64,000 nt of DNA from Bacteroidota bacterium (lineage in GTDB: Bacteria > Bacteroidota > Bacteroidia > AKYH767-A > OLB10), in contig JADJOH010000008.1 in assembly GCA_016713925.1 (NCBI GenBank), positions 453,840 to 517,839 on the forward strand. Reading direction: 5' to 3'. The notes under the pieces were generated by a model that had not been told where the DNA came from, made no database searches, and saw only the letters and a list, made by a program, of their open reading frames with translations. Position numbers and translations under genes: made by a program. This document shows, piece after piece, positions 6,801-60,237 of this stretch; position 1 is the first letter of the stretch; each line of letters opens with the position of its first letter.

Positions 6801-7580
6801 ATGAACTATACCAACATCCTTTATACTGTAGAAAATGCGATTTGCACGATTACCATTCATCGGCCCGATAAGTTAAACGCATTGAATAAAGATACCATCG
6901 CTGAAGTGGGGAAAGCGTTTCTTGCTGCTCAACAAGATGATCATGTTCGCGGAATTATCCTGACCGGTAGCGGTGCAAAGGCTTTTATTGCCGGTGCTGA
7001 CATCAGCGAGTTCGCTTCTTTTAGTCTGGAAGAGGGGATGGCCTTGAGTGCTCACGGACATGACGTATTTAACAGCGTGGAGACATGCAGTAAGCCTGTT
7101 ATTGCTGCGGTGAACGGATTTGCTCTCGGTGGAGGATGTGAATTGGCGATGGCTTGTCATATGCGAATTGCTGCAGAAAATGCAAAGTTCGGACAGCCGG
7201 AAGTGAAACTCGGACTCATTCCCGGTTACGGAGGTACGCAACGTTTAGCCCAACTCATCGGTAAAGGCAAAGCGATGGAGTTATTGATGACGGCTGACAT
7301 GATCGATGCCAATGAGGCGTATCGTCTGGGACTCGTTAATTATGTTGTTCCTTCTGATCAATTGTTGGATAAGTGCCGAGAAGTATTGAATAAAATCATT
7401 GCGAATGCTCCTGTTGCCATAGCCGAAATAGTACATACTGTAAATGCGCATTATGACAAACAATCGGATGGCTTTAAAGAAGAGATCGCGCGTTTTGGTG
7501 CATGCTTTACAACAAATGATTTTAAAGAAGGCACTGATGCTTTTCTGAATAAAAGGAAAGCTGTTTTTACAGGGAAATAG
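6801..7580 (+). CDS. Enoyl-CoA hydratase/isomerase (crotonase family)
   Basis: 259 aa with crotonase-fold motifs (ITIHRPDKLNAL, AFIAGADISEF, ALGGGCELAMACH). Confidence 0.85.
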   Translation: MNYTNILYTVENAICTITIHRPDKLNALNKDTIAEVGKAFLAAQQDDHVRGIILTGSGAKAFIAGADISEFASFSLEEGMALSAHGHDVFNSVETCSKPVIAAVNGFALGGGCELAMACHMRIAAENAKFGQPEVKLGLIPGYGGTQRLAQLIGKGKAMELLMTADMIDANEAYRLGLVNYVVPSDQLLDKCREVLNKIIANAPVAIAEIVHTVNAHYDKQSDGFKEEIARFGACFTTNDFKEGTDAFLNKRKAVFTGK

Positions 7581-7669
7581 TTTCACGAGAAAGAATTATG
7601 GCGGTTTGATAGCTTCCTGTTTTTCAGGTAAATTATATTCTGTCTTATTCTTCAAAATTATTTTAAAAG

Positions 7670-7942
7670 ATGGTCGCGGTTCGAATCATTGTTACCGGTA
7701 AAGTACAGGGTGTATTTTTTCGTCAATCTGCACTCTCTAAAGCACTTGATTTAAAGCTCAGGGGATTTGTGATGAATCAGCCCGATGGATCTGTATTAAT
7801 AGAAGCTATCGGTGAGGAAGAGAATATCTAAAGTCTCTTCGAATGGTGCCATCGGGGTCCTCTTCCTGCTAAAGTTGAAAAAGTTCATAAAGTTCAAATT
7901 GATTTTTTTGCAGGCTATGATACTTTTCTAATCAAGAAGTAG
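7670..7942 (+). pseudogene. Acylphosphatase interrupted by an in-frame TAA stop
   Basis: An N-terminal 53 aa (MVAVRIIVTGKVQGVFFRQSALSKALDLKLRGFVMNQPDGSVLIEAIGEEENI) is followed by TAA at 7829-7831. In the same frame 36 more aa follow (SLFEWCHRGPLPAKVEKVHKVQIDFFAGYDTFLIKK). Together they make a typical roughly 90-aa acylphosphatase (VxGxVQGVxFR ... G.P.A.V). Confidence 0.6.
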
Positions 7943-8003
7943 CTACCGGCTACCGGCTACCGGCTACCGGCTTCTGGCTGCTTGCCGCTTGCTGCTTGCT
8001 TGA
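7941..8003. repeat. Degenerate 7-bp tandem repeat (CTACCGG)x4 decaying into (CTGCTTG)n
   Basis: Direct reading: gctaccggctaccggctaccggctaccggcttctggctgcttgccgcttgctgcttgcttg. Confidence 0.7.
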
Positions 8004-8040
8004 TTTTGACCGTCCCTGATAAATGCAAGTAAAATAATTT

Positions 8041-8233
8041 CAATGTATCTTATCGTATCTCAAAGTATCCCAACGTATCCCAAAGTATCCCAAAGTATAT
8101 CAACGTATCCCAAAGTATATCAGCGTATCCCAAAGTATATCAACGTATCTCAATGTATCTCAACGTATCTCAATGTATCTCAACGTATCTCAATGTATCT
8201 CAAAGTATCCCAAAGTATATCAATGTATCAATG
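8041..8233. repeat. Phased 10-bp tandem repeat, about 19 copies of CAAMGTATMY
   Basis: Direct reading: caatgtatct tatcgtatct caaagtatcc caacgtatcc ... caaagtatat caatgtatca. The period is exactly 10 bp. The ORF 8043..8315 is a translation artefact of this repeat. Confidence 0.85.
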
Positions 8234-9016
8234 TAAATATTTCACCAACGTTCTTTTCGCCAGTGGCAACAAGGTATCTTCCAACGGCAATGTCAACTCC
8301 GATTCAATGACGTAGGTAGCAGGGTTTGGTAAATTTTTATTGTAGAGAAGTAAGTCGTGCTTTATATTCTCGTAGGTATTGCGAAGCGTTTTTTCATACG
8401 AGTTGACATATTGTAATCCAATCGCTCTGTACCGTTCGTTGGGCTGATCGTAAATCGTAATCTGATATTCGAACACTACGGTTTCAGTAAGATTGCCATT
8501 CCGTAAAAACAAATAGCCGGCATCTGTATGCAAGGGAACAATGCCGACGGGATAAATATTCAGTTTGGATTCGATGAAATCATAAATTTTCTTTCCTTCG
8601 GCGAGATGCTGTTCAAATTGTGGGATGCTGAAGGCAATGATATTTTCAATTTCCCGCATGAGTTGATCATCATCGCAAAGTTTTTCATAAACGAGTTTAA
8701 AATGCTGGAAATCGGTTTGGCTGAGTTTTTCCGGGAAAGAGTCGAAAAGATTTTTCTTTTGTTCGCGCAATGCGACCAGATTACGGTAATGTTTGACGAG
8801 TTCGCTGAGTGCGGGGTAGAGCCGGGTTTCTTCAAAACGCTCACTTACATGTTGAAGATAGGCAAGTAGAAGGTACTTTTTATACTCGAAATCAATATGT
8901 TGTTCGGTAATCCAATTGTCGTTCAGTTTCTTTTCCATAGGTAATGATATAGTAACTACTAATTTACGAACGTATTGTACAACTTCAATATCGTGCCGGA
9001 AGAAAATTTGTTTCAA
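8228..9016 (-). CDS. Hypothetical protein (cytoplasmic, no recognised domain)
   Basis: 262-aa ORF with protein-like composition. The likely real start is the internal Met (MEKKLNDNW...) at about 8938. No family recognised. Confidence 0.5.
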   Translation of the reverse strand: MKQIFFRHDIEVVQYVRKLVVTISLPMEKKLNDNWITEQHIDFEYKKYLLLAYLQHVSERFEETRLYPALSELVKHYRNLVALREQKKNLFDSFPEKLSQTDFQHFKLVYEKLCDDDQLMREIENIIAFSIPQFEQHLAEGKKIYDFIESKLNIYPVGIVPLHTDAGYLFLRNGNLTETVVFEYQITIYDQPNERYRAIGLQYVNSYEKTLRNTYENIKHDLLLYNKNLPNPATYVIESELTLPLEDTLLPLAKRTLVKYLH

Positions 9017-9095
9017 CAGAATTGTGTTGAATATTACATAAATACCTTGCCAACCGTCTTGGTGGGCTTGTTAATTTAGACCATTCAAAGAAATT

Positions 9096-10094
9096 ATGAA
9101 ACGTTTAATCCCTCTGCTGATCCTGATATCAGTTATTTCGATCTCCTGCGTGCCCTCCCGCATGCACAATGAACTAAAAGCGAAAAAGTCGGCTTGTGAT
9201 AAGGAAAATGAAGAGCTGAAAGCCGCCAATCTCCAGTTAAATACCCGTCAGGGGGAACTCAGTGCTATGGTAGAAGACCTGAAAATCCGAATCAAGGCAT
9301 TGGAAAGCGACACCACAATAAAAGGTCAGGAATTACGTGATCTGCGTGGCAATTTTGAAAAACTGAACAATACCTACCAAACCTTACTGAAAGATGGTCC
9401 CAATGCGGCCTCAAATACGGAAGCTACACGACAGTTGATTCGTGACTTGCAGAAAACGCAGGAGCAATTGCAAAAGAAGGAAGACGAATTGTCCAGGAAG
9501 GCAAAGATGTTATCCTTGAAAGAAGATAGCTTATCTTTGATTAGCGGAGAGCTTAGCATGAAGAACCGCCGGCTGGCTGAACTGGAACAAATTCTGGCCA
9601 GCAAGGATTCTGCCGTGAAGGCGCTGCGCAATTCGGTGGCCAAAGCTTTACTGGGCTATCAGGACAAAGGGCTGAGTGTGGAGATGAAAAACGGGAAGGT
9701 ATATGTCATGATGGAAGAGCGTTTGCTTTTCGCGACCGGGAGCACTGTAGTGGATCCGAAGGGCGTGGAGGCGATCCGCGATTTAGGAAAAGTGCTGGAA
9801 AAAAATCCGGACATCAATATACAAATAGAAGGTCACACGGATAATGTTCCCATGCATGGCACCGGAGAAATTAAGGACAACTGGGATTTGAGTGTTATGA
9901 GAGCCACATCGGTAGTGAAAATTTTACTTACAGGAAGTACAATAAATGCTATACGAATTACAGCAGCAGGAAGAGGGGAGTTCATGCCTGTTGACAAAGC
10001 CAATACGACAGAGGGCAGGAAGAAAAACAGAAGAATTGAAGTGATACTATCTCCGAAACTGGATGAAATACTGAAGCTGCTTGAAACACACTAA
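9096..10094 (+). CDS. OmpA-family lipoprotein with an N-terminal coiled-coil region
   Basis: Lipoprotein signal (LILISVISISC), then a long heptad-rich coiled coil. The C-terminus carries the OmpA/MotB peptidoglycan-binding domain (NIQIEGHTDNVP...NWDLSVMRATSVV...RRIEVIL). Confidence 0.8.
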   Translation: MKRLIPLLILISVISISCVPSRMHNELKAKKSACDKENEELKAANLQLNTRQGELSAMVEDLKIRIKALESDTTIKGQELRDLRGNFEKLNNTYQTLLKDGPNAASNTEATRQLIRDLQKTQEQLQKKEDELSRKAKMLSLKEDSLSLISGELSMKNRRLAELEQILASKDSAVKALRNSVAKALLGYQDKGLSVEMKNGKVYVMMEERLLFATGSTVVDPKGVEAIRDLGKVLEKNPDINIQIEGHTDNVPMHGTGEIKDNWDLSVMRATSVVKILLTGSTINAIRITAAGRGEFMPVDKANTTEGRKKNRRIEVILSPKLDEILKLLETH

Positions 10095-16612: not shown

Positions 16613-17345
16613 GTTCTATTCCGGTCCGCGAAGTTTAAGACCTCGCGGGTGTTAGACCTCGCGGGTGTTAGACCTCGCGGGTGTTAGACCTCGCGGGTGC
16701 ATATGGAAGTGTTAAATATCAATGACTTAATTTTTCAGGGAGACCATTTTCTTCATCTTGGCCAATTTCTGTCCCTTTTTAACCAAAATATAAAGTCCTT
16801 TCCGTGTCACTTACGGTCCGCGAAGTTTAAGACCTCGCGGGTGTTAGACCTCGCGGGTGCATATGGAAGAGTTAGATATCAATGACTTAATTTTTCAGGG
16901 AAACTATTTTCTTCATCTTGGCCAATTTCGCTACCTGTTTAACCAATAAGCAATGTCCTTTCCGTACCTCTTACGGTCCGCGAAGTCTAAGACCTCGCGG
17001 GTGTTAGACCTCGCGGGTGCATATGGAAGAGTTAGATATCAATGACTTAATTTTTCAAGGAGACCATTTTCTTCATCTTGGCCAATTTCGCTACCTTTTT
17101 AACCAATAAGTAATGTCCTTTCCGTACCTCTTCCGGTCCGCGAAGTCTAAGACCTCGCGGGTGTTAGACCTCGCGGGTGCATATGGAAGTGTTGAATATC
17201 AATGACTTAATTTTAACTCTTGACCATTTTCTTCATCTTGGCCAATTTCAGTCCCTTTTTAACCAATATGCAATGTCCTTTTTGTACCTCTTCCGTTCCG
17301 CGAAGTTTAAGACCTCGCGAAGTTTAAAACCTTGTGGGTGCTTGA
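16613..17345. repeat. Tandem array of about 4.5 copies of a 160-bp unit (first copy 193 bp because of an internal 16-bp sub-repeat, gacctcgcgggtgtta, x4)
   Basis: The copies start at about 16618, 16811, 16971, 17131 and 17291 (ttCCGGTCCGCGAAGTtTAAGACCTCGCGGGTG...CATATGGAAG.GTTA.ATATCAATGACTTAATTTT...CTTCATCTTGGCCAATTTC...). They are about 90% identical to each other. ORFs 16697..16885 and 17177..17494 inside the array are artefacts. Confidence 0.9.
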
Positions 17346-20423: not shown

Positions 20424-20789
20424 TCATATTCCAAAACTCATAATACCAGGTTCATAGGTCATAGGTTTGGCACCCACCGTGACATCGCCATGCCCGCCAT
20501 ATTTTCGTAGCTCTCGTTGCGATCGAGACTTCGCGACGTTGCGCCCGCTGCGTTTAAACAATGTCCTATCCGAAATCAAGTCTCTATAGCATTTAAATTT
20601 CAAGGTATTCAGAAGTGCGACCGATTGTCTAAAGCTCTCAGCCCATGTCCTCAGACATAACTCACAGACATTAACCACCAGGTCGTAGCCGCTTGCCCTT
20701 TGCTTATAGCTGGTAGCCGGAAGCCGGAAGCTCATAGCTGGAAGCCGGCAGCCGGCAGCCTCCTTTATCGAAGCAAAAATCTCAACCAC
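20424..20789 (-). CDS. Dubious ORF, hypothetical (possibly non-coding)
   Basis: 121-aa ORF that spans simple repeats at both ends. Composition is atypical and it has no recognisable domain. Confidence 0.2.
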   Translation of the reverse strand: MVEIFASIKEAAGCRLPAMSFRLPATSYKQRASGYDLVVNVCELCLRTWAESFRQSVALLNTLKFKCYRDLISDRTLFKRSGRNVAKSRSQRELRKYGGHGDVTVGAKPMTYEPGIMSFGI

Positions 20790-60020: not shown

Positions 60021-60237
60021 TTACGAATTACGAAATTGTACGGAAGTGCGAATTACGAAAGTATACGGAAGTGCGAATTACGAAATTGTACGGAAGTGCG
60101 AATTACGAAAGTATACGGAAGTGCGAATTACGAAATTGTACGGAAGTGCGAATTACGAAAGTATACGGAAGTGCGAATTACGAAATTGTACGGAAGTGCG
60201 AATTACGAAATTGTACGGAAGTGCGAATTACGAAAAA
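60021..60237. repeat. Tandem array of about 8.5 copies of a 25-bp unit, AATTACGAAA(T/G)T(G/A)TACGGAAGTGCG, with two variants alternating
   Basis: Direct reading. It starts 5 nt after the metB/C-family stop and ends about 290 bp upstream of the sensor kinase gene. ORFs 60013..60387 and 60036..60299 are artefacts of the repeat. Confidence 0.9.

Follow-up and report, generated by a model that had tools for sequence, protein, structure and literature searches.

Results

The acylphosphatase–p262 intergenic region

The window (the whole stretch of 64,000 nucleotides that was analysed) contains a 284-bp intergenic spacer flanked by two convergent genes, one for an acylphosphatase and the other, p262, for a conserved hypothetical protein (Table 1). 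Most of this spacer is occupied by a tandem array of a 10-bp unit, which is non-coding and sits between the two stop codons. A block of heptamers begins at the TAG stop of the acylphosphatase gene, whose 3′ end faces both arrays, and is separated from the decamer array by a unique stretch that is kept in the sister species G010 with 2–3 substitutions. An OmpA-like gene and an enoyl-CoA hydratase gene lie nearby. The initial annotation had placed the array between two convergent 3′ ends and beside a 7-bp repeat, and both the open reading frames and the heptamers reported by TRF agree with this placement.

The acylphosphatase frame is interrupted in the window by a TAA codon. The same codon reads CAA in a contig of 99.6% identity (L163), in the conspecific contig L159 and in G010, and an intact 90-aa acylphosphatase product is called by gene callers in five conspecific contigs. 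The stop is private to the window assembly, the result of a mutation that arose very recently or of a base error. For p262, the true start is most likely the ATG at 8938, giving 236 aa, rather than the TTG at 9016. Sixteen contigs on record carry the 236-aa product, and most relatives align from residue 27; the exact 262-aa product was found in none. The TGA stop of p262 (8228–8230) falls inside the last partial decamer unit.

Table 1. Coordinates of the features discussed. Plain numbers are window positions; prefixed coordinates refer to other contigs of the window genome (C) or to contigs of relatives (L).
Feature	Location	Strand	Basis
Acylphosphatase gene, in-frame TAA at 7829–7831	7670..7943	+	Pfam PF00708, E 2.4e-16, first half
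Heptamer block, GCTACCG x4.4 then GCTGCTT x3.4	7942..8003	.	TRF, strain comparison
Unique 36-bp spacer separating heptamer block from decamer array	8004..8039	.	Sequence
10-bp tandem array, 20-bp higher-order unit	8040..8229	.	TRF, sequence, unit map, composition
Conserved hypothetical gene (p262)	8228..9016	-	ORF list; no Pfam family matched in a Pfam search of the protein
GTAT-N-TCAA loci, inverted-pair examples	C8:1117473-1117724, C8:257300-258045, C2:95417-95831, C7:644100-644349		
Amplified hairpin module in congeners	L015:2171-2285, L016:2065-2377, L017:1352-1634		

Architecture of the decamer array

TRF returned 19.0 copies of the 10-bp unit with 78% matches and 0% indels, and scored the same stretch at period 20 as well (8.8 copies, 90% matches). 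The score is higher at period 20, which indicates that two variants of the decamer together form the true higher-order unit, a dimer. With scores of 205/231, against a maximum of 62 across 50 simulated 64-kb windows (first-order Markov), the array is far longer than expected by chance. Read from the sequence, the unit has the form GTAT[C/A][C/T]CAA[A/C/T]. The 19 tandem copies of CAAMGTATMY described in the initial annotation were thus recovered, with T or G at the M position of some units. Its coordinates (8041–8233) were right apart from the end, which intrudes 3–4 bases into coding sequence. On its + strand the array is rich in C and poor in G (A66 C46 G20 T58), and no unit contains an A run longer than 3.

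Copy number varies among strains of the species

Strains were compared through contigs with an identical 236-aa p262 product, which was found in ten places from JGI, NCBI and Logan. Three conspecific contigs carry a decamer array of 190 bp, one with the same unit order as the window and two with two unit substitutions. The array measures 187 bp in one further contig, where it contains 9-bp units resembling long-read deletion errors; copy numbers were taken from metagenome assemblies, some of them Nanopore-based, and a difference as small as 187 versus 190 bp may be assembly error. Two other contigs have arrays of 269 bp (27 copies versus 19 in the window), the eight extra units being dimer blocks at the acylphosphatase-proximal end. 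Copy number is therefore polymorphic within the species (187–190 bp versus 269 bp). The heptamer block also differs between strains, with lengths of 57, 64, 68 or 71 bp.

Four Logan short-read contigs (L164–L167) all stop 54 bp inside the decamer array. As short-read assemblies break inside such arrays, the absence of an array from a short-read MAG is weak evidence. Exact-pattern scans of metagenome contigs for the array junction and for the spacer gave no match.

The same gap in related species

Flanking DNA was searched in 40 relatives and the orthologous gaps were then read; matching contigs belong to uncultured Bacteroidota MAGs, several of them long-read activated-sludge bins. The sister species G010, whose flanks are approximately 93% identical in nucleotides to those of the window, shares the decamer array, at 41.5 copies (414 bp), together with a longer heptamer block (6.4 copies). 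Comparison of the unit maps revealed that the units adjacent to the stop codon are common to both species and that different dimers have been amplified in each. Shared terminal units combined with differing internal dimers are classic minisatellite behaviour. In G015 the gap measures 150 bp and holds about three degenerate decamer units beside the stop codon and a relic of the heptamers. The orthologous gaps of eight other congeners are 15–77 bp long and contain no array. The pattern of four decamer units was found only in the window genome and G010 among 146 genomes of the order (controls, 0–1). This distribution indicates that the array is young and limited to a small clade.

Other sequences have been amplified at the same position. 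In three congeners an unrelated, terminator-like hairpin module is tandemly repeated in the gap with periods of 31, 70 and 100 bp (Table 1), and the module is single-copy in a fourth, G006 (L014). The convergent spacer has been filled with different repeats in different species.

Two further observations concern the acylphosphatase side of the gap in G010. A stretch of approximately 1.5 kb with terminal inverted repeats lies between the acylphosphatase stop and the heptamer block (L011:3945-5350) and reads as a putative two-ORF insertion element. The N-terminal region of the acylphosphatase gene also looks frameshifted in this species, as judged by reading the sequence.

Short arrays across the genome and the order

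The whole 4.64-Mb assembly of the window genome contains 565 repeat clusters detected by TRF. Short arrays, with a period of at most 30 and not a multiple of 3, number 326 (70 per Mb). Periods of 7 (141 clusters) and 8 (48 clusters) dominate, and nine clusters have period 10. On a gene map made with a crude longest-ORF caller, in which the positions of gene starts are approximate, 92% of the 326 short arrays are intergenic; convergent gaps account for 25% of these, versus 15–16% of the background, and divergent gaps are depleted. On the same map, 20% of array edges that face a 3′ end lie within 5 bp of the stop codon, versus one in twenty of those that face a 5′ end. Certain units recur, for example AAACCTT at 23 loci and AAGCCGG at 22. 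Three other tandem arrays in the window, at 16638-17332 (16-bp and 160-bp units), 20702-20760 (an AGCCGGA-type heptamer) and 60024-60235 (25-bp unit, 8.5 copies), belong to the same genome-wide phenomenon.

Sampled over 40–400 kb, six relatives (one belonging to a different family) have 22–115 such arrays per Mb, mostly heptamers. The tendency toward short arrays is common to other genomes of the order, including one of a different family.

A dispersed family of related units

A 9-nt core related to the decamer, GTAT-N-TCAA, was found in tandem arrays at at least 14 loci of the window genome, with periods of 9+10, 10, 11, 20 and 22. As single sites outside arrays, the core showed no over-representation. 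Most of the orthologous arrays in G010 differ in copy number from those of the window genome, and at one orthologous site the two species have different periods, 20 versus 11; the 10-bp period is therefore not a conserved property. Several of the loci are inverted pairs, in which units in minus orientation are followed by units in plus orientation (examples in Table 1). Contig C8 amounts to 25% of the genome but carries ten of the 14 independent loci (p = 4e-4, binomial, post hoc), unlike short arrays in general, which are evenly distributed. Shared flanks, such as a mobile carrier would leave, were sought by all-against-all BLAST of the 250-bp flanks of 16 family loci, and the only matches ran from repeat to repeat.

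In-place slippage alone does not account for the presence of one 9-nt core at at least 14 loci without shared flanks. The family may reflect active, sequence-specific seeding or copying of arrays, or a lineage-specific protein that reads sites spaced by one helical turn. The number of loci without common flanks, the inverted pairs, the clustering on C8 and the restriction to two species suggest this reading, which we nevertheless regard as unlikely.

Predicted curvature and alternative explanations

Curvature was predicted with a dinucleotide wedge model; with its parameters, which were checked by a phased A6 control alone, the decamer array is curved by 15 degrees per turn and the control by 28.7. 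Random genomic 190-mers gave 6.2 ± 1.5 degrees per turn, and 0/1000 random windows reached the value of the array, which makes a physical effect on local DNA shape possible. Arrays of 19 copies of permuted decamers gave a mean of 11.5 ± 6.2 degrees per turn and 26% of them equalled or exceeded the observed value, indicating that the curvature stems from the 10-bp period and not from the sequence of the unit.

The initial annotation had suggested that the array is intrinsically curved DNA or a set of same-face sites for a DNA-binding or nucleoid protein. A selected structural element of this kind would fit the period of exactly 10 bp without indels, the curvature that none of the random windows attained, and a related unit family that keeps to periods of 9–11 bp, near the helical repeat. 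However, the array has no A-tracts, its curvature is only about half the value for phased A6, and permuted units do as well in a quarter of cases. Close relatives range from 0 to 41 copies, an orthologous site of the family alternates between periods 20 and 11, most arrays in the genome have periods of 7–8 bp, and the core is not enriched as a single site. With related arrays at periods of 9, 10 and 11, and with a curvature that does not depend on the unit, selection for a structural role finds no support and is improbable. As signs of a merely neutral repeat, the same annotation had named random length or absence in close relatives together with no predicted curvature; the former is what we found, whereas the latter holds only by half, as a moderate curvature (15 degrees) is predicted.

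A role in transcription was considered in several forms. An Rfam search of 7400–9300 at E ≤ 1 gave no match. The predicted RNA folds of both strands of the array are weaker than those of shuffled sequences (z +1.4 and +3.2), which argues against a structured RNA or a terminator hairpin in the array. A scan for consensus terminators found nothing on the + strand of the gap and, on the minus strand, no more than a weak stem of 6 pairs made by the heptamers. Sigma-70-like matches inside the array were discarded: they are one chance match repeated, and the consensus does not apply to Bacteroidota. A different possibility is that the array is a candidate Rho-loading (rut-like) region that ends read-through transcripts from the acylphosphatase side. 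Its + strand has 46 C and 20 G, with 40 YC dinucleotides (recurring every 10 nt) versus 0 on the minus strand, and the weak fold (z +1.4), the lack of an intrinsic terminator on that strand of the gap and the enrichment of arrays at gene 3′ ends, where a fifth of the 3′-facing edges adjoin the stop, all point the same way. The RNA downstream of the stop is thus C-rich, G-poor and unstructured, but the orientation with respect to the transcript is not consistent. In same-direction gaps of the window genome the C-rich strand is sense in 77 arrays versus antisense in 85 (p = 0.58), and this lack of strand bias led us to reject the idea as a genome-wide rule. In convergent gaps the strand that is sense for the nearest gene is more often the G-rich one of the array, in 43 cases versus 20 (p = 0.005, post hoc). 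Moreover, congeners manage with gaps of 15–66 bp, and the upstream gene has a premature stop in the window genome and looks frameshifted in G010. Together these observations make a Rho-loading function quite improbable for the decamer array.

Translation of the array and an error of assembly carry far less weight. A 90-aa ORF (8043–8315, + strand) runs through the array, and the + strand is free of stops in all frames, as it would be if the array encoded a repetitive peptide. This openness, however, follows from the G-poor unit. The ORF has no Pfam match and overlaps the 3′ end of p262 in antisense orientation. In G010 its frame is closed, with stops present in two of the three frames, and changes in the number of 10-bp units would shift the frame. 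A peptide product is scarcely credible on these grounds. An artefact of a long-read metagenome bin could be suspected from the Nanopore-based MAGs among the relatives and from the conspecific contig whose 9-bp units resemble deletion errors. Against this, the same array and junctions occur in at least ten independent assemblies (JGI, NCBI, Logan) and short-read contigs read 54 bp into the array, which makes an artefact extremely improbable.

Discussion

A hypervariable minisatellite in a convergent spacer

The decamer array is very probably a non-coding, hypervariable minisatellite (VNTR) of the class of long simple-sequence repeats with units of 5–11 nt, with no dedicated function indicated. 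That it might be a hypervariable minisatellite had been raised in the initial annotation, and the copy numbers of 19 and 27 in conspecific strains, 41.5 in the sister species, about three in a third species and 0 in other congeners bear this out. Most likely the array grew in place from a seed of two or three units beside the stop codon of the hypothetical gene. We infer that units are gained and lost by replication slippage or unequal exchange, mostly two at a time (20 bp), and that the array is presumably neutral. It exemplifies a tendency toward short arrays between genes that runs through the lineage, and probably persists because a spacer between convergent 3′ ends has no promoter and tolerates changes in length. 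That arrays have been retained at orthologous sites in the window genome and G010 may point to weak selection, or there may simply have been too little time to lose them. In itself, the array is an ordinary fast-evolving intergenic repeat in a repeat-rich lineage.

According to the summary in PMC4679880 of the work of Mrazek, Guo and Shah (2007), simple repeats with units of 5–11 nt abound in bacteria of scattered lineages; units of 7 nt are the most frequent, and the repeats have no established function. The decamer array resembles these long simple-sequence repeats in its head-to-tail 10-nt unit, its length beyond chance, its intergenic position and a period not divisible by 3, and likewise in belonging to an array-rich genome and having no demonstrated function. 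The defining features of the class, an uninterrupted unit of 1–11 nt, a length above chance and a unit that is not a multiple of 3 outside coding sequence, are all present. It differs in that the commonest class, also in the window genome, is the heptamer, whereas the present array is built from decamers paired into 20-bp higher-order units.

Some Bacteroidetes (Gramella, Aequorivita) have intergenic heptamer arrays, with close relatives that have short repeat-free gaps (PMC4679880). The dispersed unit families, the many intergenic loci and the repeat-free gaps in relatives are shared with these heptamers and with the STRR of heterocystous cyanobacteria. The family described here has a unit of 10–11 nt instead of 7, however, and was found in only two sister species among those searched. 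The decamer array is accordingly not a dispersed heptanucleotide repeat of the STRR type; heptamers make up the block beside it and 141 other clusters.

Three further classes were considered and rejected. Kinetoplast-type phased A-tract DNA has a period near the helical repeat and a predicted net bend, as does the decamer array. The array nevertheless has no A-tract of 4 bp or more, about half the bend (in the wedge model) and a curvature that is not specific to its unit, and neither its phase nor the array itself is conserved. A contingency locus (a phase-variable SSR) does not fit an array that lies outside any coding frame and promoter, with only a stop codon overlapping its last partial unit. 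Iterons and replication-origin repeats have units of 17–22 bp beside a rep gene or origin, whereas the unit here is 10 bp and the neighbouring genes are those for the acylphosphatase, the hypothetical protein, the OmpA-like protein and the enoyl-CoA hydratase.

Bacterial VNTR or minisatellite loci of the MLVA type offer a close parallel, with copy-number differences between strains and sister species, conserved terminal units and expanding internal blocks. The decamer unit is shorter than most of theirs, and the host, unlike theirs, is neither cultured nor typed. The acylphosphatase–p262 locus would serve well as a strain marker for this activated-sludge Bacteroidota species.
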